A stretch of DNA of 64,000 nt, from the sequence record NC_014467.1; one strand, 5' to 3'. The stretch comes from Escherichia phage RB16. Under the pieces are notes generated by a model. That model did not search any database. It saw only the letters and a list, made by a program, of their open reading frames with translations, and was not told the origin of the DNA. Below, piece after piece: positions 2,312 to 48,786 of the stretch (position 1 is its first letter; each line of letters opens with the position of its first letter). Both the position numbers and the translations under genes were made by a program.

Positions 2312-4005
2312 AATTAAATTTCCGTAAAATTAAGTATCAAAACATCTTATCAGTGGGTAATACCCCGATCGAACTTGAATTCGATACTGCAAAGAAAACC
2401 CTGATCACGGGTAAAAATGGTGGTGGTAAATCCACACTGATCGAAGCGTTGACGTATGCTCTTTTTGGTAAATCATTTCGTGATTTAAAAGTCGGGCAAC
2501 TGGTAAACAGTGTCAACAAAAAGAAATGTCTGGTTGAACTGGATATTGAATACGGGAAAGATTCGTACAAAGTCGTTCGCGGACAAAAGCCGAAAGTATT
2601 CGAGATCTGGAAAAACGGTGATAAGTTAGCAGAAGATTCAGCAGCGGGTGATTATCAATCTCAGCTTGAATCCATGCTCAATATTAACCTGGTTGGATTC
2701 AAACAGGTAATCGTGTTGGGTACTGCTGGCTATACTCCATTCATGGAACTGAAAACACCGGATCGCCGTAAACTGGTTGAAGACCTGTTGTCGCTATCGG
2801 TTATCAGTGAAATGGATAAGCTGAACAAATCATATGTCCGTGGTGTTAATCAGCAGTTGGATACCCTGTCAATGCAGGTTAACCACATCCAGCAGCAGAT
2901 CGCTACACACCAGCGCTTCATTGATGAACAGCGAGCTAAAGCGAACCAGAACAACGCACGATACAAAGAGATCTACGATAGCCACGTTGAAACCGCTAAG
3001 AACATCAAAGCACAGCTTATGCAGTTGCAAGCGGAGATCGCAGAAACGGTGATCACTGGTGCAGACCGAACGGAAGATATAAACAAACTCCGTGATGGCT
3101 ATACGCGCCTCTCTATGACTGTAGAACAGTTTAAAAAGCTGGAAGTGATGTATCAGAAAGGTGGTGAGTGTCCGGCCTGTAAACAGGCGATTAAGCCCAC
3201 TCCTGAACGCATGGAAGAGATCGCAAACAACATCAAAGCGGGTACGCAACGATTAACGCTGATCAAAACCAAACAGGACGAGTTGCAAGGCATTATGAAC
3301 GAGTTGCTTCAACAGCAACGCGCACTGAATGCTATGAAAACGAAATACGAAGCCCTGAAAGGTACGCTGCAAAATGAAGTTGCCAACGCTAAACGCGCAC
3401 AAGCGATCATGGAACAGGCAAGCGCGGAAGTTGTTATTGATGAAGAACCTGTTAAGCAGTTACAACAACAGGAAGCAGATCTGAACGATAAACGTCAAGG
3501 ATATGTGAAAGAAAAATATATCCGTGGTATCGTTACAGATATGTTAAAAGATTCTGGTGTAAAAGCCAGCATCGTAAAACGTTATATCCCGTACTTCAAC
3601 AAGCAGATCGCATACTATCTGGATCTGTTGGGCGCTGACTACCAGTTCACTTTAGATGATGAATTCAACGAATCAATCAAATCACTGGGGCGCGATGATT
3701 TTAGTTACGCATCATTTAGCCAGGGTGAACGCGCACGAATCAACCTTGCGTTGCTTATGACCTGGCGTGATGTAACAAGTAAAGTTTCTGGTGTTGATTT
3801 ATCGCTTCTGGTACTAGATGAAATCTTTGATGGTGCAATGGATAAAGAAGGTGGATTTGCAGTCAGAGCATTACTGGATGATATTGAAGGTAATGTTATT
3901 GTAATCAGTCATCAGGATTTAGATCCACAAGAATTTCATCGACATATTGTTATGTCTAAAGTAGGGAGATTCACCAAATGCAAGATAGTAAACAATGATT
4001 ACTAA
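2308..4005 (+). CDS. 46: recombination endonuclease subunit gp46 (Rad50/SbcC-like ATPase)
   Basis: 565 aa; Walker A GKNGGGKST; long coiled-coil middle; aligns by eye to T4 gp46 N-terminus. Confidence 0.9.
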   Translation: MKLNFRKIKYQNILSVGNTPIELEFDTAKKTLITGKNGGGKSTLIEALTYALFGKSFRDLKVGQLVNSVNKKKCLVELDIEYGKDSYKVVRGQKPKVFEIWKNGDKLAEDSAAGDYQSQLESMLNINLVGFKQVIVLGTAGYTPFMELKTPDRRKLVEDLLSLSVISEMDKLNKSYVRGVNQQLDTLSMQVNHIQQQIATHQRFIDEQRAKANQNNARYKEIYDSHVETAKNIKAQLMQLQAEIAETVITGADRTEDINKLRDGYTRLSMTVEQFKKLEVMYQKGGECPACKQAIKPTPERMEEIANNIKAGTQRLTLIKTKQDELQGIMNELLQQQRALNAMKTKYEALKGTLQNEVANAKRAQAIMEQASAEVVIDEEPVKQLQQQEADLNDKRQGYVKEKYIRGIVTDMLKDSGVKASIVKRYIPYFNKQIAYYLDLLGADYQFTLDDEFNESIKSLGRDDFSYASFSQGERARINLALLMTWRDVTSKVSGVDLSLLVLDEIFDGAMDKEGGFAVRALLDDIEGNVIVISHQDLDPQEFHRHIVMSKVGRFTKCKIVNNDY

Positions 4006-4570
4006 AAACTGGGACGACGAATTTCAAGCCGAGATTCGTCGTCGGTTTTACCATGTAAACGGGGTTTTGTATCACAAGACGGAGAGTAAACAAACTGCTT
4101 TTTCTCCGGCGGGATACTATTTCAAACCTGGTGATATGGTGAAATGTCACAAAACTAGGAAAAAGACTCCATATTTACAGATTTGTATGCGATATGAAGG
4201 GAAGTCTAACTATCTATACGTACATAGGGTTGTGTGGTTTCTTGAATATGGGTATCAGGTTGATACGATCGACCATATCGATCTAAATCCTTTAAATAAT
4301 GATCCATCGAATCTTAGAGAAGCAAGCACACAGCAGAACCATTACAACAAAAATGGAAAACCTAACACTTCCTCCACTTACAAGGGTGTATCATGGGATA
4401 AATCAACTTGCAAATGGAAAGTGGGTATTCAGCATAATAAGAAAAAGATTCATTTAGGATATTTTGATGATGAAGTCGAAGCGGCTAAGGCATACGATGC
4501 AAAGGCAATTGAAATTGGTGGACAATATGCGAGGTTAAACTTCCATGATTATGTTAGAACGAGAATTTGA
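3995..4570 (+). CDS. HNH-AP2 homing endonuclease (paralog 2)
   Basis: HNH motif (IDHIDLNPLNNDPSNL) plus AP2-like domain (YKGVSWDKSTCKWKV...LGYF). Confidence 0.8.
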   Translation: MITKNWDDEFQAEIRRRFYHVNGVLYHKTESKQTAFSPAGYYFKPGDMVKCHKTRKKTPYLQICMRYEGKSNYLYVHRVVWFLEYGYQVDTIDHIDLNPLNNDPSNLREASTQQNHYNKNGKPNTSSTYKGVSWDKSTCKWKVGIQHNKKKIHLGYFDDEVEAAKAYDAKAIEIGGQYARLNFHDYVRTRI

Positions 4571-17174: not shown

Positions 17175-17519
17175 ATGTCTGAATTGAAAGTAAAAGCATC
17201 TTTTGAATACGTGATTATCGAAGCAACTGCTCGACCGCAGGGTTCCGAAATCGTATCATCAACTGGCATTGTAGTAGGTGTGCGTCAACACGGGGAACAA
17301 CCGTATTTTGGTAAAGTTGTTTCTGTAGGGCCGGAAGTACCGGAAGAAAACGCAAAAGCCCTGCTGGGTAAAATGGTTCCGCTTCCACATGCTCAAATGG
17401 CGAATGTTCCAGATCCAGACCTGGTTGCTGGCTACATTTCCGAAAAAGAAGCAAAAGAGAAAGAAACGAAATACGTTTCCGCACATTACAAAGCAATCCA
17501 GGCAATCTACGAGATCTAA
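17175..17519 (+). CDS. 31: GroES-like co-chaperonin gp31
   Basis: ~114 aa; resembles T4 gp31 (EYVII...VGPEVPE...VSAHYKAIQAIYEI); downstream of cd as in T4. Confidence 0.7.
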   Translation: MSELKVKASFEYVIIEATARPQGSEIVSSTGIVVGVRQHGEQPYFGKVVSVGPEVPEENAKALLGKMVPLPHAQMANVPDPDLVAGYISEKEAKEKETKYVSAHYKAIQAIYEI

Positions 17520-17521
17520 AA

Positions 17522-17773
17522 ATGGCTAAATCAATTCAAGCAATTATCGCTGATACCGTCAGCAAATCCAAAAAGCTGTTCGACAAAGGCGAAATTCTGG
17601 AAGCCCCAGCGCGTATTGACGTAATGACAGCAATGATCATTGATGCGCATCAGGGTAAACTTAAATCCCGTACCGATGAAGTCATGGCGTACATCGTCCA
17701 GTTCGAAGACGTATGTAAGTACGCGAAAGATGTTGATCCGCTGGTTCGCGAAATCTATCGCAAACAGTTCTAA
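17522..17773 (+). CDS. rIII-like lysis-inhibition accessory protein (by size and position only)
   Basis: 83 aa ORF immediately after gp31, the T4 position of rIII; sequence not independently recognised. Confidence 0.35.
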   Translation: MAKSIQAIIADTVSKSKKLFDKGEILEAPARIDVMTAMIIDAHQGKLKSRTDEVMAYIVQFEDVCKYAKDVDPLVREIYRKQF

Positions 17774-17780
17774 AAATTCC

Positions 17781-17857
17781 GGCCCTTTAGCTTAATTGGT
17801 TAGAGCGGGTGACTCATAATCGCGCGGTTGCTGGTTCGAATCCAGCAGGGGCCACCA
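17781..17857 (+). tRNA. tRNA with CAU anticodon (Met or lysidine-Ile)
   Basis: Cloverleaf folded by hand: acceptor GGCCCTT/AGGGGCC, D-arm, anticodon loop CTCATAA, T-arm GCTGG-TTCGAAT-CCAGC, encoded CCA. Confidence 0.75.
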
Positions 17858-17862
17858 AATAC

Positions 17863-17938
17863 GCAGGTGTAGTTCAATTGGTAGAATATCTGGTTTCCAT
17901 CCAGATTGTTGAGGGTTCGAGTCCCTTCACCTGCTCCA
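17863..17938 (+). tRNA. tRNA-Gly (UCC anticodon)
   Basis: Acceptor GCAGGTG/CACCTGC, anticodon stem TCTGG/CCAGA with loop TTTCCAT, T-loop TTCGAGT, encoded CCA. Confidence 0.8.
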
Positions 17939-18087
17939 ATTCGGGTGCGTAGCGCAATGCCGTTAAATGGTTCGGAATATGCAACCTTATCGTATGCGAT
18001 AGGCTCTGTTGGTATCCGGTAATAGGTTCCCCGGAATGCGGGGTGAAGTAAAGAAACTTCCAGCCCACAAATTTAAAAGAGAAAAAT

Positions 18088-18510
18088 ATGAAAGGTCTTC
18101 AAAAGCTGTTTGATTTAACCCCACAAATTCGCGAAATCACTACCTCTGGTAAAAGCGACAATGAAATCAATAATGCATTGATGAAGTTTTTCACCGAAGA
18201 AATTGATGATTTCGAAACTCTGTTCCGTCACGCGTTAGAAGCGTATTCCGTGAACGGGTTCTTTGCATCACCACAGGTGAACAGCAAGAAACAATGCCAT
18301 CGTCGATTCTTCGACTGGTCGATCGTAAACGTGGTTCGCCGTACTGACATCGAACCAACAAATCACCAGTTGATGTCTGTTGATTCTGCTGTGTTTATCA
18401 TCCAGTATCTTATCAGCGGCGGTTTCAAATCGAACGATATTCCGTTCACAAATGAAGCTCTTATGGAAGAGTTTGCAGAAGCCCATAAGTACATCAAAGC
18501 AATTCGTTAA
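18088..18510 (+). CDS. hypothetical protein (140 aa)
   Basis: ORF track; terminator-like hairpin downstream. Confidence 0.5.
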   Translation: MKGLQKLFDLTPQIREITTSGKSDNEINNALMKFFTEEIDDFETLFRHALEAYSVNGFFASPQVNSKKQCHRRFFDWSIVNVVRRTDIEPTNHQLMSVDSAVFIIQYLISGGFKSNDIPFTNEALMEEFAEAHKYIKAIR

Positions 18511-18552
18511 TCATCAGGCTATCTTCGGATAGCCTTTTTTCTGGAGAAGCAC

Positions 18553-19122
18553 ATGCGCTTTTTAAAATACGCAAGCTGGCTTGTACTGGTTCCACTGGAT
18601 ATTCTTTCTGGTGTTCTGGCTATTCTGCTGGCTCCTTTCGTGGTTCCGTTCTATAGTGAAGAAACCGGACACTTACCTAAAGGGTTCCGTTGGATGGAAA
18701 CATTCGATAACCCGATCGATGGTGATGGTGGACATATCCGGCGTTGGGCTAACATCCGGTATCACTTAGGCGCTCTGGGTGTGTATACGCAACGTGTAGG
18801 CTGGTTGTGGCGTAACAAGGCGTACAACTTCGCTTATCACGTCTTAGGGCGTGAAGCACAATCAGACTTCGCCTGGAAGGGCAACCCGAAAACAGAAGGT
18901 GGTTCCGATCCATCACGTCACGGTTATCTGTTGATGTGGAATGATTCGGCATGGGGGCTTTATGTCTTCAAACCGTGGCTTAAAGTCGGAAAGGTTCAGT
19001 TCTGCTTACGCGTGTATTGCGGGTGGAAACTGAAACAGGAAGTAACTGACCCGAACGGGCTGGATCGTGCAATGCTGGCGTTCCATATCAACCCGTTGCG
19101 TTATTATGTCGTAGAAAGGTAA
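18553..19122 (+). CDS. membrane-anchored hypothetical protein (189 aa)
   Basis: N-terminal transmembrane helix ([25 protein letters not shown]). Confidence 0.5.
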
Positions 19123-19126
19123 TACA

Positions 19127-19489
19127 ATGAAAGCATATCAGATTTTAGAAGGTTTACACACTGGCACAATCTACATGGAAGAAGGTAATGATGTTCGTGT
19201 GGTGGTATCCAAAACCCTCGAAATGGATTCAGTGATCGGTAAAGCTCGCGTTGCTCCATTCGCAAAACGTGAAGTCGATATTGAATTTCAACCCACTGTT
19301 AAAGTGGAAGGTGGACAACACTTAAACGTAAACGTGTTGCGCCGCGAAACTCTGGAAGATGCTGTGAAGCATCCAGAAAAATACCCACAGTTAACGATCC
19401 GTGTGTCCGGCTATGCAGTGCGTTTCAATTCACTGACTCCTGAACAACAGCGCGACGTTATCGCCCGAACCTTTACAGAGAGTCTATAA
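19127..19489 (+). CDS. autonomous glycyl radical cofactor (GrcA/YfiD-like; T4 Y06I-type)
   Basis: C-terminal ~60 aa match the E. coli GrcA/PflB glycyl-radical domain as recalled ([61 protein letters not shown]). Confidence 0.85.
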
Positions 19490-19770
19490 TGGCGATTGAA
19501 GACGTACAGGGCTATAAGCCCCATTCAAAAGAAAAGATCGACAAAGTAAACCGCATCAAGGCCGCTGAAATTGCCCTGGGCGAAATCTTCAAAGAACTGG
19601 ATGAAGAGTATTCAAGCGATTACGCGGTATCAGATACCGATTCATTCACCACAGAAGAACTCGATGCGATGCTTGAACGTGTCCATCAAATCCAACTGGC
19701 GAAAGACCGACTGAAAGAAGCCTCTATGTGGGCGTGTCGTGCGGTGTTCCAGCCAGAAGAAAAGTATTAA
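19489..19770 (+). CDS. hypothetical acidic protein (93 aa)
   Basis: ORF track. Confidence 0.45.
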   Translation: MAIEDVQGYKPHSKEKIDKVNRIKAAEIALGEIFKELDEEYSSDYAVSDTDSFTTEELDAMLERVHQIQLAKDRLKEASMWACRAVFQPEEKY

Positions 19771-19820
19771 AATCCAGCCGTTGCCGAAAGGTAGCGGCTT
19801 TTTTCGTTTTTATGCAAAAT

Positions 19821-19856
19821 AATGCTTGCACTGAATCAGGCTTTCTTGTATCTTTA
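19821..19856 (+). promoter_or_regulatory. candidate promoter (MotA-box-like aaTGCTTgc / TTGCAC-17-TATCTT)
   Basis: Read directly upstream of 19896 ORF; weak -10. Confidence 0.3.
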
Positions 19857-19895
19857 ACCACGTAGGCAAGACAACTTAACTTTGAGGATGACATT

Positions 19896-20189
19896 ATGAA
19901 AACTTACAACATGAAAGACCTGGTTTGCTTCAAAACTCGCCGTGAAGCCCGTGCGTATGTTTTGGCGGCTGGTAAGAATACCTCTGCTGTAATCGACCTG
20001 GGTACTGATAAAGAGGTTGGTGCTCGTTGGGCTGCTGTTGTGGTTATCGCTGCTCCTGTGACTCCTGTTAAAACTCTGGTTCTGGGTGCGCGTAAAGCCG
20101 AAACTCTGAAAACCAGCACTTGCGGGGCGGGTGGTGTTCATAATGTTACGGTCATTCGAAAAAGATCTTTTAATCGAGTCGGTGTATGA
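19896..20189 (+). CDS. hypothetical protein (97 aa)
   Basis: ORF with GAGGA RBS. Confidence 0.4.
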   Translation: MKTYNMKDLVCFKTRREARAYVLAAGKNTSAVIDLGTDKEVGARWAAVVVIAAPVTPVKTLVLGARKAETLKTSTCGAGGVHNVTVIRKRSFNRVGV

Positions 20190-20279
20190 AGGTATACGGG
20201 GAAAACAGAAAGAACAATCTCCGAAGAGATTGATGTAATCAATGAATTTCTATGTAGACCATACGTTAAGAGAGTTATT

Positions 20280-20720
20280 ATGAATATTGGTAGTGGTGAT
20301 TCATACCCATCATGCGCATTGAGCAACTTCGCCCCGCATCCGTTTACGTTTGACGGGGTAGAATGTGCATCAATGGAGGGCTTTTTACAAAGTCTGAAAT
20401 TCAGCAATCCAGATATGCAAGCGCATGTGTGTACGCTGGTTGGTAAAGCCGCCAAGTTCAAAGGCAAGAAAAAGAAATGGTATCGCGATCAGACCCTATA
20501 CTGGAAGGGTATGCCGATTCACCGTGAATCAGAAGCATATCAAATTCTGATTGAAAACGCATATAATGCGTTATTCCTTAATGAAGGGTTTCGCCGTGCG
20601 CTGGCAGCAACCGGAAAAAGTACCTTGACACATTCAATGGGAAAGAATAAGATGAATGAAACGGTACTCACTGAACGTGAGTTTGTCCGAAATTTAACCC
20701 GATTGAGAGATCTGTTATGA
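20280..20720 (+). CDS. NADAR-domain (YbiA/DUF1768-like) protein
   Basis: LSNFAPHPFTFDGVECASMEGFLQSLKF resembles the NADAR core of E. coli YbiA (FSNFAAWPIKVDGKTWPTSEHYFQAQKF). Confidence 0.7.
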   Translation: MNIGSGDSYPSCALSNFAPHPFTFDGVECASMEGFLQSLKFSNPDMQAHVCTLVGKAAKFKGKKKKWYRDQTLYWKGMPIHRESEAYQILIENAYNALFLNEGFRRALAATGKSTLTHSMGKNKMNETVLTEREFVRNLTRLRDLL

Positions 20721-35919: not shown

Positions 35920-38139
35920 TTACAGTTTAACTTCTTTTTCTTCCAGGACGATTTCGCAATCGAATGTTGCACCTTCCCAGAACTTATGCGGGATAATGTC
36001 AGTCGCTTTAACCGATACTTTGGTTTCTTCAAAATCCATATCCGCAAACCAGGCGTGGCCTACAACGATACCGTACATTACACGGCTCAGGCGCTTGTTC
36101 AGTGCGCGTACTTCGTTGATGGTTGCCTTTGTTTCTTTATCAAGGTACTCGATTACCTTATCCTTGTCAAGCGCTGCGAGTTCAGCTTTAACAGCATCGT
36201 AAGCCCACAGGATGATCAGGTCGCCGTTGTTCAGTTTCTTCTTACCTTCGGCACGTTTCGCAACGGTTGCCGCTACAGCAGGAAGGGAGGAAACACCCTT
36301 GATTTTCAGATTCAGTTCTTTCGACATATAAACATCAGTCGAATCGGTACGGGTTACTTTCGGGGAGAATCCATAATCACGAATACCCTGTTCAGATAAC
36401 CATTCACCAGCGGCTTCACCGTATTTCTGTTTCAGACCTTCGGCATTACGTAAACCGATCGCGTCGTCACGGAAGAACTTCATCACCTTCTGGCGACCTT
36501 TCAGGATTTCCAGACGGATAGAGTCGTTTACATACTCTTTACCGGAGATCCCGCGAGTCATCGCACGGTTAACCAGAGGCAGACTTGTAAAGTCAACCAG
36601 AACCGACATACGGTCTTCACCGATTTTTGCCAGCGGCTTGATGGTCAAACCAGAAGCGCGGAGGTTTTTCAGTGTCGGAATATCAGTTTCCAGAGGCAGA
36701 ACTTTAACGTTTACGATACCGTCTTTAACGATGGTAAAGTTACGCACCTGCTTAGTTTCGATCTGTTCAGGCAGTCCCAGTTCTTTCTGTTTGCTTTCTG
36801 GGATAGTTACGTAACCTTGCAGATCCGTGTTAATGGAAATGTTAGGACGTGAACTGTTGCCGACCAGATGTTTAACCGATACTTTGGTTGTTGTCTGGGT
36901 AAATTTCGGTGTCCAGATTTCGTGCGTTACCATTTGTGCGGCTAATGCTTTGCGTTCTTCCGGTGTTTTCGCATTTGCGATCTGTTCTGACAGTTGATCC
37001 AGAGTATCATCTTCTTTCTGTACTGTCTGACGGCCTGTACGGTTGTACGCCCAGTGTTCAGAAGACAGGTCGATCACTGTGTCAGTTTCTGCCAGCAGTT
37101 CTAGAGCATCAACCAGAGTGAATGCGTTTTCGTCTGGAACCATGTTGTAATCAACACCTTCAATCAGACGTTTACCCGCATCAACTACCGCTTCCGCGAT
37201 CAGGTCTTTGGCGTTGGAATAATCCTGCTTAGTAAAGCAGTTATCGTAAGCCTTAATCAGACGAACGTCACCGACTTTTTTCAGCACTTTCCATGCCAGA
37301 TCAGGGTTCATGGTATGAAGTGCATGATACAGAACCACGTACAGAACCTGTTCACCTTCCATCGTAGCTGGATCAAATCCGTCGATATCGTTGATTGCGT
37401 TATCACCCAGCGCCCAGATGTTTTTGATATGCTCAGGAACCAGCACAACACCGTTTGCAGCGTTCAGGACATACACGCGCCCTTCGTCAATGTAGATCGC
37501 ATGGGTAGCATCACCTACTTTAACTTCAATACGCGCTGATGTTTGAGCGGTAATGATTTCAGCAAATGCTGGCTCGTATGCGTCGAAACCTTCAACGAAT
37601 TTATGCAATGCGTTGGTTGCTTCTGCCATTTTTTCCAGCAGAGGACGGTTAACATAGTAACCATATTCCAGGAACGCAATGCTGTTAAACGTCAGAGGGA
37701 GAACCGCACACGCTTTCAGGATGTCATCGGTACGCCAGCAGTTATCATAACCATCCGTCAGGAAGATCAGGCTGTTCAGGTTGCCGTTTTCGGATTGCAG
37801 GTCAGTTGCAATCTCAGCAGCCAGATTCAGAGGTTCGACGAAACCAGTACAACCAGTAGGTTTCAGATAACGGTCGATCGCGGTGCAGATATTGGTCAGA
37901 TCCGATACGTTGCTAACCTTCTCACCACGGAACACAGTACCGTAATCGCCTTTGCTGGAGAAGTACAGGATCGAAACAGTATCATCCTGTTTAACCAGGC
38001 TTGCCAGATTCGCTTTCAGGTGCTTACGAATTTTCGGCAATTCGCTGTACATTGAACCGGAAACGTCGCAAACGAAAACGTGGTTGGTCGGAGTCGGTTT
38101 AGATACTGCATTTTTGAATTCGATATTTGTAATTGACAT
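35920..38139 (-). CDS. von Willebrand factor A (vWA) domain protein, 739 aa
   Basis: N-terminal MIDAS motif DVSGSM with downstream FLTDGYDN; C-terminal ~500 aa unassigned. Confidence 0.7.
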   Translation of the reverse strand: MSITNIEFKNAVSKPTPTNHVFVCDVSGSMYSELPKIRKHLKANLASLVKQDDTVSILYFSSKGDYGTVFRGEKVSNVSDLTNICTAIDRYLKPTGCTGFVEPLNLAAEIATDLQSENGNLNSLIFLTDGYDNCWRTDDILKACAVLPLTFNSIAFLEYGYYVNRPLLEKMAEATNALHKFVEGFDAYEPAFAEIITAQTSARIEVKVGDATHAIYIDEGRVYVLNAANGVVLVPEHIKNIWALGDNAINDIDGFDPATMEGEQVLYVVLYHALHTMNPDLAWKVLKKVGDVRLIKAYDNCFTKQDYSNAKDLIAEAVVDAGKRLIEGVDYNMVPDENAFTLVDALELLAETDTVIDLSSEHWAYNRTGRQTVQKEDDTLDQLSEQIANAKTPEERKALAAQMVTHEIWTPKFTQTTTKVSVKHLVGNSSRPNISINTDLQGYVTIPESKQKELGLPEQIETKQVRNFTIVKDGIVNVKVLPLETDIPTLKNLRASGLTIKPLAKIGEDRMSVLVDFTSLPLVNRAMTRGISGKEYVNDSIRLEILKGRQKVMKFFRDDAIGLRNAEGLKQKYGEAAGEWLSEQGIRDYGFSPKVTRTDSTDVYMSKELNLKIKGVSSLPAVAATVAKRAEGKKKLNNGDLIILWAYDAVKAELAALDKDKVIEYLDKETKATINEVRALNKRLSRVMYGIVVGHAWFADMDFEETKVSVKATDIIPHKFWEGATFDCEIVLEEKEVKL

Positions 38140-40758: not shown

Positions 40759-41013
40759 TCAAAAAATATGCGTAAGGTTTCCGGCGTTGTTCGGGTATTC
40801 CACGTAATCGCCACGGAATATGTTTAGATCGGAATCGAACTTAAATCCTTGACCCCTGACATCCTCATGACGGGAAATATAAGAACATCCGTACTTTTGT
40901 AGATCTTCCATGTACATTTCAGTGATGCGTTTTGCTTTGTCCATTCCCCGACCTTCAAATCGGGAACGGCGATAATGTTCCAGCAAAAACGCATATAACT
41001 TTTCGTATGTCAC
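40759..41013 (-). CDS. hypothetical protein (84 aa)
   Basis: ORF track. Confidence 0.4.
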   Translation of the reverse strand: MTYEKLYAFLLEHYRRSRFEGRGMDKAKRITEMYMEDLQKYGCSYISRHEDVRGQGFKFDSDLNIFRGDYVEYPNNAGNLTHIF

Positions 41014-41918
41014 AGAACTTTCCTTATCTGTTTGGCTATTGCCTCGATAACTGGCACGGAAACGGAGTTACCCGCTTGCTTGTATGCTTGTTTTTTACTC
41101 GATGGAATAATAAACGAATCTGGGAAGCCTTGCAAGCGAAAACATTCACGCGGGGTTAATCGTCGTGGGTTCTTCCCGTCCTGCAACACCAGACATTGAA
41201 CGCCGTCCTTGTAATATTGCGCGGTGATGGTTCCTGTGTGCGTAGAATCGGCTGTGACGGCCTGATAACCAAAGCCCTTACCGTTTGCCTTATTTCGTTC
41301 CTTACGCTCTCTAAAGCCTTTCCACGCGTTATCTGATAGAGTGTACGAATCATCAGCATCTTCGAGGATATCACCTACGCGCGTAGGGGTACGCGGGGGA
41401 ACCGGAAACGAAAAGAATACATCATCCAGGAAGCAGACAATGAACACGCGTTCACGTCGCTGGGGTAGTCCGAAATCTTTTGTATTCAGTCGCTGATAGA
41501 ATACGTTGTATCCTTCGGCCTCAAGAAGCCCGTAAATCGTTTTAAACGTCTTTCCCTTGTCATGGGTTAGCAATTCAGGCACGTTCTCAAAGAACAGCAC
41601 ACGGGGCTTTTTAGCGCGTATGATGCGGAGGATTTCAAAGAACACCGTACCGCGAGCATCATCAAATCCCAGTTTCAATCCGGCTTTACTGAATGCCTGA
41701 CACGGGAACCCAGCCAACAGGATATCGTGATCGGGTACTTTGTTTTCATCAATGGCAAACAGATCACCCTGTAGGTTATCGTCGCCCCAGTTTTCAATAT
41801 AGGTTTGCTGTGCGTGTTTGTCGATCTCAGACGTTAAAAGGCATTCGACCCCGCCGAATGCATTATCAAATCCAAATCGAACTCCACCAACGCCAGCGCA
41901 GAGGTCAATTATTTTCAT
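41010..41918 (-). CDS. DNA (cytosine-5)-methyltransferase
   Basis: Motif I DLCAGVGG, motif IV GFPCQAFS, ENV motif. Confidence 0.85.
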   Translation of the reverse strand: MKIIDLCAGVGGVRFGFDNAFGGVECLLTSEIDKHAQQTYIENWGDDNLQGDLFAIDENKVPDHDILLAGFPCQAFSKAGLKLGFDDARGTVFFEILRIIRAKKPRVLFFENVPELLTHDKGKTFKTIYGLLEAEGYNVFYQRLNTKDFGLPQRRERVFIVCFLDDVFFSFPVPPRTPTRVGDILEDADDSYTLSDNAWKGFRERKERNKANGKGFGYQAVTADSTHTGTITAQYYKDGVQCLVLQDGKNPRRLTPRECFRLQGFPDSFIIPSSKKQAYKQAGNSVSVPVIEAIAKQIRKVL

Positions 41919-42178: not shown

Positions 42179-42447
42179 CAGTTGCTACCCCACGTATAAA
42201 AATCAAATTTTTCGGTTTGCGCTTCTTCAACACGGATCACGTAATCACTGGTATCGTATTTGTCAGCGGTACGGAATTCAACCGAATACACACGAGCAAA
42301 CACAGCATAAAGCGCTTCGCGGATTTTCTCTGCGATCTCTTCATCGGTCTTATCGATATGCAACGTAAGCATATCGGAAACCACATCTTCAACGCGACGA
42401 ACATCACGCTTATCAATGTAACCAGTGTATAAATTTACTTCTTTCAT
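42178..42447 (-). CDS. hypothetical protein (89 aa)
   Basis: ORF track. Confidence 0.4.
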   Translation of the reverse strand: MKEVNLYTGYIDKRDVRRVEDVVSDMLTLHIDKTDEEIAEKIREALYAVFARVYSVEFRTADKYDTSDYVIRVEEAQTEKFDFYTWGSN

Positions 42448-43442
42448 TTGTAATACCTCATAACATGATCTTTGTACACGAGTTCAATGAAGTTATCCCA
42501 GAACTCGCGATCGACTTCTTTCGGATAGGTAGAGATTGCAGCCAGGCGTTCAACTTCACCCATCACTTCCTCCAGTTTTTCCTGTACTTCGGCAAACGGG
42601 ACATTACCAGCTTTAACCGATTTCAACAGGTCACTCTCAGGAAGAGGATAAACGATATCACCGTGCTTGTAAATCTGTACCAACTGCATACCGCCGCGCA
42701 ATGCGTGACTTAATGCTTTCCAATCGATCCCATTGTTGGCTTCTGCTTGTCGTGCGCGTTCGCCATATTCATCCCAGAGCTTATACACGGATTTCTTCAT
42801 TTCCGCTACGGTGATTGTGAACTGGAATTTACGACCCAGAACTTCGTAGAAATTCTGCATACCACCTTTTTCGCTATAATGCAAAATAGAACGACAGAAT
42901 TCATTGGTCGGTAGTTGGTCTTTGATGTCGCCAACTTTGGTATTAACCAACGATGAAGCGTTTTCATCGTAATGTGCATTATCGGTGTCTTGCAACACGT
43001 CATACACTTCACGCAATGCAGCCAGGCGTGAACCCTTAACGCCATATTTCGCGGCTTGCTTACGAACATAACCGAACAGACCAGTTAACTCCGTGGTGTA
43101 GAAACGCCAGCGGTTAGCGCGGATATACTGCCAGATTTCAGAGTTAGCGATCAGCTTGCTATCATCAGCATGAAGCATATCGAGCGCTACGGTATCACCA
43201 TCACACGCAAGGCTGATGAACTTAGGCAGACTATACAACTGACGGTCTACGTCATCAACGGTGTTTTTAGAGTTCTTATCGCCCGTGCTCGTGTCGATGG
43301 TCTTTGGGGCTTTACCCAGTAAGATATCGCGTGGATGCGGGAGAAAGATCCCTTTATAATCTTTGTCGCTTGTCGGGGTGTTCAGTCCGTACAAAAAACT
43401 TCCAAACACCATTTCAACTACGGTTTTCATAAAATTCTCCAA
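42444..43442 (-). CDS. Pol-beta-superfamily nucleotidyltransferase (GS-x10-DxD), 332 aa
   Basis: N-terminal FGSFLYGLNTPTSDKDYKGIF matches the minimal nucleotidyltransferase signature. Confidence 0.6.
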   Translation of the reverse strand: MENFMKTVVEMVFGSFLYGLNTPTSDKDYKGIFLPHPRDILLGKAPKTIDTSTGDKNSKNTVDDVDRQLYSLPKFISLACDGDTVALDMLHADDSKLIANSEIWQYIRANRWRFYTTELTGLFGYVRKQAAKYGVKGSRLAALREVYDVLQDTDNAHYDENASSLVNTKVGDIKDQLPTNEFCRSILHYSEKGGMQNFYEVLGRKFQFTITVAEMKKSVYKLWDEYGERARQAEANNGIDWKALSHALRGGMQLVQIYKHGDIVYPLPESDLLKSVKAGNVPFAEVQEKLEEVMGEVERLAAISTYPKEVDREFWDNFIELVYKDHVMRYYK

Positions 43443-48679: not shown

Positions 48680-48786
48680 AAGCAATTTCTCTACGTGCTT
48701 ACGGATCACCAATAGACCCGTTCCTGTATATATTTATAGCAAAAAAGGGGCAATAAACCCCTTATGTTAAATCAGTATAAAAATAA

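Follow-up and report, generated by a model that had tools for sequence, protein, structure and literature searches.

Escherichia coli GrcA (YfiD; 6OWR; TIGR04365 / IPR011140) is a small stand-alone glycyl radical domain protein, and phage T4 encodes a counterpart, Vs.6 (Y06I). As summarised in PMC8683613, the Knappe group found that both YfiD and T4 Y06I are radicalised by the pyruvate formate-lyase activating enzyme (PFL-AE), form a complex with O2-cleaved pyruvate formate-lyase (PFL) and restore its activity in vitro (Wagner et al. 2001, pmid 11444864). According to the same account, the C-terminal half of YfiD (residues 61-127) sits in the PFL active site, and both attachment to cleaved PFL and efficient activation depend on the N-terminal half (residues 1-60) (PMC8683613). 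In vivo, a PflB-G734A strain regains formate production through GrcA, with the radical passing from G102 of GrcA to C419 of PflB (PMC12338860).

Here we analyse the vs.6 gene in a 64,000-nt stretch of the Escherichia phage RB16 genome (NC_014467.1), hereafter the window. The gene is already known and already annotated, and is a textbook phage auxiliary metabolic gene; a literature search on GrcA of phages in the role of auxiliary metabolic gene yielded no relevant paper. What is added here is a resolution of capture versus constraint for the RB16 gene, together with a contrast with the chimeric gene of T-even phages that could interest students of phage-host gene exchange.

The vs.6 locus and its protein

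The gene and its immediate surroundings comprise the following features.

18516..18535, plus strand: terminator-like hairpin and T-run at the 5′ edge of a three-gene block (8 pairs, 4 of them G-C, then TTTTTT)
18553..19122, plus strand: upstream co-oriented ORF of 189 aa, DUF7338 / phrog_2143, function unknown (ORF list and profile matches)
19114..19119, plus strand: Shine-Dalgarno-like GAAAGG, 7 nt before the vs.6 ATG (read from the sequence)
19127..19489, plus strand: vs.6 / Y06I-type autonomous glycyl radical cofactor gene (ORF list; 120 codons plus TAA, ATG start)
19127..19303, plus strand: N-terminal half of vs.6, codons 1-59, of phage type and diverged from host GrcA, with a predicted beta domain of five strands
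19304..19486, plus strand: C-terminal half of vs.6, codons 60-120, glycyl radical domain, protein identical to E. coli and Cronobacter GrcA
19409..19411, plus strand: codon of Gly95 in RVSGYAV, predicted radical site (read from the sequence)
19489..19770, plus strand: downstream ORF of 93 aa, homologue of T4 vs.4 (BLASTP against T4 Vs.4)
19776..19799, plus strand: terminator-like hairpin and T-run at the 3′ edge of the block (10 pairs, 6 of them G-C, then TTTTTT)

The DUF7338 ORF, vs.6 and the vs.4 homologue form a three-ORF block between the two terminator-like hairpins. The stop codon of the upstream ORF (19120-19122) leaves a gap of 4 nt to vs.6, and the stop of vs.6 and the start of the downstream ORF overlap as TAATG, as read from the sequence, with the product of the latter sharing 53% identity with T4 Vs.4 (BLASTP, E = 1e-30). 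The DUF7338 neighbour also lies upstream of vs.6 in phages EC-W2, RB43 and phiKp_4, so that the pairing is kept. A homology of the upstream ORF with T4 vs.7 was ruled out, as no similarity was found and T4 has the unrelated Vs.7 at that place. No sigma-70-like promoter was found in 17500-20500, and the T4 late-promoter motif TATAAATA has its sole occurrence in the window at 48731; these searches found no promoter for the vs.6 block.

A 3-kb stretch around vs.6 is 98% identical to Enterobacter phage EC-W2 and 93-97% identical to many Pseudotevenvirus phages of Enterobacter, Cronobacter, Klebsiella, Citrobacter and Escherichia. In addition, the window carries T4-type genes for an AAA/SMC-type ATPase (likely gp46), thymidylate synthase (td), NrdA, NrdB, RNA ligase 1 (rnlA), DNA ligase, baseplate proteins and tail-tube proteins; NrdD and NrdG were not found among the 20 large window ORFs scanned. 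By these comparisons the window is that of an RB43-like T4-type phage of the genus Pseudotevenvirus, in the RB43 group of Straboviridae. An enterobacterial host had been proposed in the first-pass annotation of this DNA, and the nearest genomes, phages of Enterobacter, Cronobacter, Klebsiella and E. coli, agree with it.

The same annotation had assigned the product to the T4 Y06I type, which our searches corroborate. The protein matches phrog_1209 end to end (E = 1.2e-59; protein 1-120, profile 1-121 of 121 positions) and T4 Vs.6 at 76.7% identity over 120 aa with no gaps. This full-length match, the orthology with T4 and the vs.4 synteny in a T4-type genome place it in the phage Vs.6/Y06I family, and the RB16 gene is, as judged from sequence, the orthologue of T4 vs.6. 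Both proteins belong to phrog_1209 and are 120 aa long and collinear, with 60 of 61 residues of the C-terminal half identical and the same start of the N-terminus, and both T4-type genomes carry the gene in the same early-gene neighbourhood. By contrast, the N-terminal halves agree at only 32 of 59 positions, the C-terminal half of the T4 gene is 97.3% identical to E. coli grcA in nucleotides against 83.6% for that of RB16, and the surroundings differ in that T4 has vs.7 where the window has the DUF7338 ORF, and in that the window lacks vs.5 between vs.6 and vs.4.

Closer relatives are found in Pseudotevenvirus and Slopekvirus, where the orthologues of EC-W2 (ECW2_0156; 99.2% amino acid identity, with the single difference M17L), RB43 (Vs.6; 94.2%) and phiKp_4 (GrcA; 91.7%, with the pair L77/E81 replacing E77/K81) occur in the same three-gene context and are already annotated as 'autonomous glycyl radical cofactor' or 'Vs.6'. 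Homologues were found in 1586 of 50,697 phage records, including T4-like and T5-like phages and a Yersinia jumbo phage, and "autonomous glycyl radical cofactor" is a frequent annotation among them.

At the domain level, the description of the product as a GrcA-like glycyl-radical protein is well founded. The Pfam Gly_radical profile (PF01228) is matched at 67 bits (cut-off 22.2), and phmmer returns E = 3e-42 for the YfiD NMR structure 6OWR and E = 1.6e-26 for PflB. Residues 60-120, beginning VEGGQHLNV, are identical to residues 67-127 of E. coli GrcA at 61 of 61 positions; these similarities far exceed what chance would give. The first-pass annotation had described the last ~60 residues as matching GrcA and PflB almost residue for residue, which is true for GrcA (100%); for PflB the identity is about 72% (51 of the last 71 residues). 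The GrcA HMM TIGR04365 aligns protein residues 18-120 with model positions 23-126 at 155.6 bits, under the curated equivalog cut-off of 170, because the N-terminal half is divergent. The protein is therefore best filed as a Vs.6/Y06I-type phage GrcA homologue, not as a strict GrcA equivalog, and would be expected to work in a GrcA-like manner.

The RVSGYAV radical loop, shared with E. coli GrcA, occupies residues 92-98, and its columns are invariant in both alignments of homologues, including that of Gly95, which is equivalent to G102 of GrcA and G734 of PflB (our alignments and PMC12338860). In Foldseek comparisons the modelled C-terminal half aligns with 6OWR over 60 columns at 100% identity and superposes on the C-terminal glycyl radical domain of PFL (PflB; 1H16, 2PFL) with an rmsd of 0.9 Å over 43 columns. 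Unlike PflB, the 120-aa protein lacks the ten-stranded barrel of glycyl radical enzymes (GREs) and the catalytic cysteines, and so it cannot be an enzyme alone; the PflB match is confined to the last 71 residues, and the full-length PFL model TIGR01255 is matched at positions 675-744 of 744 with 91 bits against a cut-off of 994, which shows that the protein is not a full-length PFL-type GRE. The gene further differs from E. coli grcA in being phage-borne, outside the ung/grcA chromosomal context. AlphaFold confidence for the C-terminal half is 45-77, as low as is expected of a domain that folds onto PflB.

The N-terminal half, already described as divergent in the first-pass annotation, is 7 residues shorter than that of E. 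coli GrcA and identical to it at 13 of 59 positions (22%, with 7 gap columns); its identity to the Karamvirus copy, like that to T4, is 32 of 59. Among the phage and bacterial homologues R24 never varies, and conservation is at least 90% at Q5, I6, K29, D34, R48, E49, P56 and V58. AlphaFold predicts an ordered domain (pLDDT about 90) with strands at residues 3-6, 15-19, 22-27, 36-38 and 47-50, and a control prediction for E. coli GrcA gave the same five-strand topology with the same confidence, so that a folded N-terminal half special to the phage was rejected; the predicted C-terminal elements are likewise shared with GrcA. Given the conserved positions, the GrcA HMM alignment starting at residue 18 and the beta topology shared between the models, the N-terminal half, while divergent, appears to be homologous to that of GrcA. 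The ordered prediction disagrees with the NMR disorder of YfiD residues 1-60 reported in PMC8683613, and the N-terminal half may therefore fold only on binding. Weak Foldseek matches suggest a KOW/SH3-like fold for the N-terminal half.

Nucleotide divergence of the C-terminal half

The first-pass annotation had left two explanations for the host-like C-terminus, recent capture or strong constraint, and had proposed alignment with host genes. We compared positions 19304-19486 of the window with the last 183 nt of grcA from 80 bacterial species plus E. coli and Cronobacter sakazakii (82 in all), a set with Escherichia, Cronobacter, Klebsiella, Salmonella, Citrobacter and several species of Enterobacter among its members. 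None of the 82 hosts exceeded a nucleotide identity of 83.6%, a value reached by E. coli, a Buttiauxella and a Serratia; Cronobacter stood at 80.3% and the median over hosts at 79.8%. The median identity between hosts was 83.6% as well, equal to the best value between phage and host. Against E. coli grcA, the C-terminal half has 30 synonymous and 0 non-synonymous differences, spread evenly along its length; pS is 0.70 and dS about 1.6, close to saturation, and under neutrality the chance that all 30 differences would be synonymous is about 1e-19.

Composition and the closest phages give a similar picture. GC3 is 0.322 in the N-terminal half and 0.459 in the C-terminal half, against a phage background of 0.446 ± 0.084 for 61-codon segments, and in grcA of Enterobacter, Klebsiella and Cronobacter the C-terminal half has a GC3 of 0.49-0.64. 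Within the phage clade, C-terminal halves are separated by a dS of 0.5-1.1, with 2 amino acid changes relative to RB43 and 2 relative to phiKp_4. Megablast with grcA of Cronobacter, Enterobacter, Klebsiella and Salmonella as queries gave no full-length C-half match above 90% in the phage collection, and an exact 26-mer of the C-terminal half, scanned against metagenome contigs for a bacterial donor, gave 0 matches. Because the differences from E. coli grcA are exclusively synonymous, synonymous sites are near saturation against all 82 hosts, GC3 is typical of the phage and no close donor exists in the hosts sampled, recent capture is rejected and purifying selection is required; the identity of the C-terminal half points to long-term purifying selection, not recent import. 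Of the two explanations left by the first-pass annotation, strong constraint is thus the one that stands for RB16.

The vs.6 genes of T-even phages differ in this respect. In T4, the last ~185 nt of vs.6 are 97.3% identical to E. coli grcA, with 5 differences, and a sharp breakpoint at the (V/I)EGG codons separates them from upstream sequence with no detectable nucleotide similarity, GC3 changing from 0.19 to 0.41. For RB69 vs.6 the C-terminal half reaches 96.7%, and in total a C-terminal half 95-99% identical to E. coli grcA, with the same sharp breakpoint and GC3 shift, is carried by 622 phage records, mainly Tequatrovirus and Mosigvirus. By sequence, T-even vs.6 is a chimeric gene produced by recent host-to-phage gene conversion, and the lineage of the window does not share the chimera; the direction is read from the E. 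coli sequence, which fits the enterobacterial pattern (91% to Citrobacter), and from the N-terminal half of the T4 gene, which is phage-like in composition. T4 and RB69 are 89.8% identical in their N-terminal halves and 97.3% in their C-terminal halves, and they have three differences from E. coli grcA in common, suggesting that the conversion happened once, in their common ancestor. Recent capture is, on this comparison, true of T-even phages and not of the window gene. Literature searches found no paper describing the T-even vs.6/grcA chimera.

The 61-residue sequence of the RB16 C-terminal half is the commonest host haplotype, present in 14 of the 82 species. Elsewhere among phages the identity to it is lower, at 52/61 in Karamvirus, 48/61 in T5-like phages and 47/61 in a Proteus phage (9-14 substitutions), and over the Karamvirus, Krischvirus, Bragavirus, Proteus-phage, T5-like and jumbo-phage copies the number of differing positions is 4-14 out of 61. 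As these lineages keep the gene with substitutions, function does not strictly depend on perfect identity, and there is room for an earlier conversion from a host gene.

At codons 77-81 (19355-19369) the window protein reads LEDAVKH, with E77/K81 like GrcA of E. coli and Cronobacter, and that of Klebsiella phage phiKp_4 reads LLDAVEH, with L77/E81 like GrcA of Klebsiella and Salmonella; the residues form an i/i+4 pair, and each phage allele corresponds to one of the two main haplotypes of the hosts. Host tracking of this pair as a general rule was rejected, as EC-W2 grows on Enterobacter (GrcA M/E) yet carries E/K, and RB49 grows on E. coli yet carries L/E.

Proposed mechanism and competing explanations

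Taking the protein and nucleotide comparisons together, we consider it highly probable that RB16 vs.6 encodes an autonomous glycyl radical cofactor that serves as a spare part for host PflB, with a C-terminal half kept by purifying selection and not recently imported. By analogy with the work on T4 Y06I and E. coli YfiD, from which activation by PflA and rescue of PflB are carried over to the RB16 protein, the 120-aa protein would be made when the phage infects an enterobacterial host that is fermenting or microaerobic, and the host pyruvate formate-lyase activating enzyme (PflA) would place a radical on Gly95. The C-terminal domain would then dock into PflB that has lost its own radical domain to oxygen cleavage at Gly734, or that is inactive for another reason, and hand the radical to Cys419 of PflB, which would restore the flux that turns pyruvate into acetyl-CoA plus formate and hence the ATP supply for phage production. 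The divergent N-terminal half probably helps the protein to bind damaged PflB and to be activated, as has been found for E. coli YfiD. Long-term purifying selection on the C-terminal half would follow from the need of this domain to fit both PflA and the PflB core, host proteins that are highly conserved. A fitness benefit of vs.6 during infection is, for any phage, a proposal.

The origin of the C-terminal half can be read in other ways. Events in which the C-terminal half or the whole gene is lately copied from grcA of the current host do occur in this gene family (T4, RB69 and some 620 further records of E. coli phages), but for RB16 we give such a recent horizontal capture almost no credence, considering that no host species among the 82 exceeds 83.6% nucleotide identity, that the 30 synonymous differences are scattered evenly, that megablast of grcA from Cronobacter, Enterobacter, Klebsiella and Salmonella against phages gave no full-length C-half match above 90%, and that GC3 is phage-typical and sister phages already stand at a dS of 0.5-1.1 in the C-terminal half. 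An ancient replacement, in which the protein has the same function but the C-terminal half of the Pseudotevenvirus/Slopekvirus gene was exchanged long ago by gene conversion from host grcA and has drifted synonymously since, is a possibility to be taken seriously, albeit an unlikely one. It would account for a phage-type N-terminal half (32/59 to T4 and Karamvirus, 13/59 to the host) joined to the commonest host haplotype (14/82) when the Karamvirus, Krischvirus, Bragavirus and T5-like copies carry 4-14 replacements; the higher GC3 of the C-terminal half (0.459 versus 0.322) recalls the proven T4 chimera, and the E77L and K81E differences between the window and phiKp_4 coincide with the two main host haplotypes. 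However, in GC3 the C-terminal half is just an average phage segment, matching of the E/K versus L/E pair to the host is inconsistent (EC-W2, RB49), no donor is identifiable, and at saturated synonymous sites such a replacement looks the same as vertical descent under strong constraint. An older conversion would still need long purifying selection. A broader version, in which phage vs.6 and host grcA exchange C-terminal halves repeatedly by homologous recombination and the C-terminal half of the window gene is a worn-down older conversion, comparable to the fresh one of T4, RB69 and other T-even phages, strikes us as rather doubtful; if true, a gene of a lytic phage and its homologue in the host would be evolving in concert to this day, with the breakpoint conserved at the boundary of the domains, a situation of which few cases are documented.

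Other functions than the rescue of PflB have also to be weighed. A role in nucleotide metabolism of the NrdD type was suggested for vs.6 by Nolan et al. 2006 (PMC1524935), in which the protein would be a spare radical domain for the phage anaerobic ribonucleotide reductase NrdD. The Gly_radical domain is indeed also that of NrdD, and T4-type phages are rich in nucleotide-metabolism genes, with td, nrdA and nrdB present in the window, but the sequence is GrcA/PflB-specific (61/61 to GrcA, 51/71 to PflB). T4 NrdD has been crystallised, and no class III ribonucleotide reductase or NrdD chain is among the 34 PDB matches at E <= 10; likewise, all NCBIfam matches are PFL-type GREs or GrcA, with no NrdD family at E <= 0.01. 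Given in addition that T4 Y06I acts on PFL (Wagner 2001, as cited in PMC8683613), we regard the NrdD role as very improbable. Hardly more probable is a decoy or regulator that would compete for PflA with PflB and host GrcA, or block PflB unproductively, and thereby redirect host fermentation instead of repairing it. Phages often encode mimics of host proteins, and the N-terminal half is unlike that of the host, where it controls binding and activation in YfiD according to PMC8683613. Against this, the RB16 protein keeps all residues of the catalytic domain, including the radical glycine and its surroundings, as in functional GrcA; a 61/61 identity under purifying selection is not needed by a decoy, and T4 Y06I restores activity in vitro (as reported in PMC8683613).

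For a spare part of host PflB, which we favour, a C-terminal half unchanged through saturating synonymous divergence means that the interface with host PflA and PflB would be extremely constrained. The presence of vs.6 also supports an enterobacterial, facultatively anaerobic host and suggests that the phage invests in keeping host fermentation going.

Other features of the window

Two tRNA genes on the plus strand, tRNA-Met(CAT) at 17781-17857 and tRNA-Gly(TCC) at 17863-17938, stand in tandem 1.2 kb upstream of vs.6; at the matching position the EC-W2 annotation gives tRNA-Gly alone. The two tRNAs were the sole Rfam matches, and the 149-nt spacer between tRNA-Gly and the next ORF had no Rfam match and folded no better than shuffled sequence (z = -1.15).

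Directly after the ORF of the AAA/SMC-type ATPase (likely gp46), an HNH_3 endonuclease with an AP2 DNA-binding domain is encoded on the plus strand (3995-4570) and is probably a homing endonuclease. Four further ORFs were observed on the minus strand. A full-length C-5 cytosine DNA methyltransferase (41010-41918; PF00145 at 315 bits) is present in this T4-type phage genome, and an RlaP-family nucleotidyltransferase-like protein is encoded at 42444-43442. A 739-aa protein (35920-38139) carries a von Willebrand factor A domain at its N-terminus, and a 467-aa protein (53252-54655) joins an N-terminal PIN domain to a PhoH-like ATPase domain.
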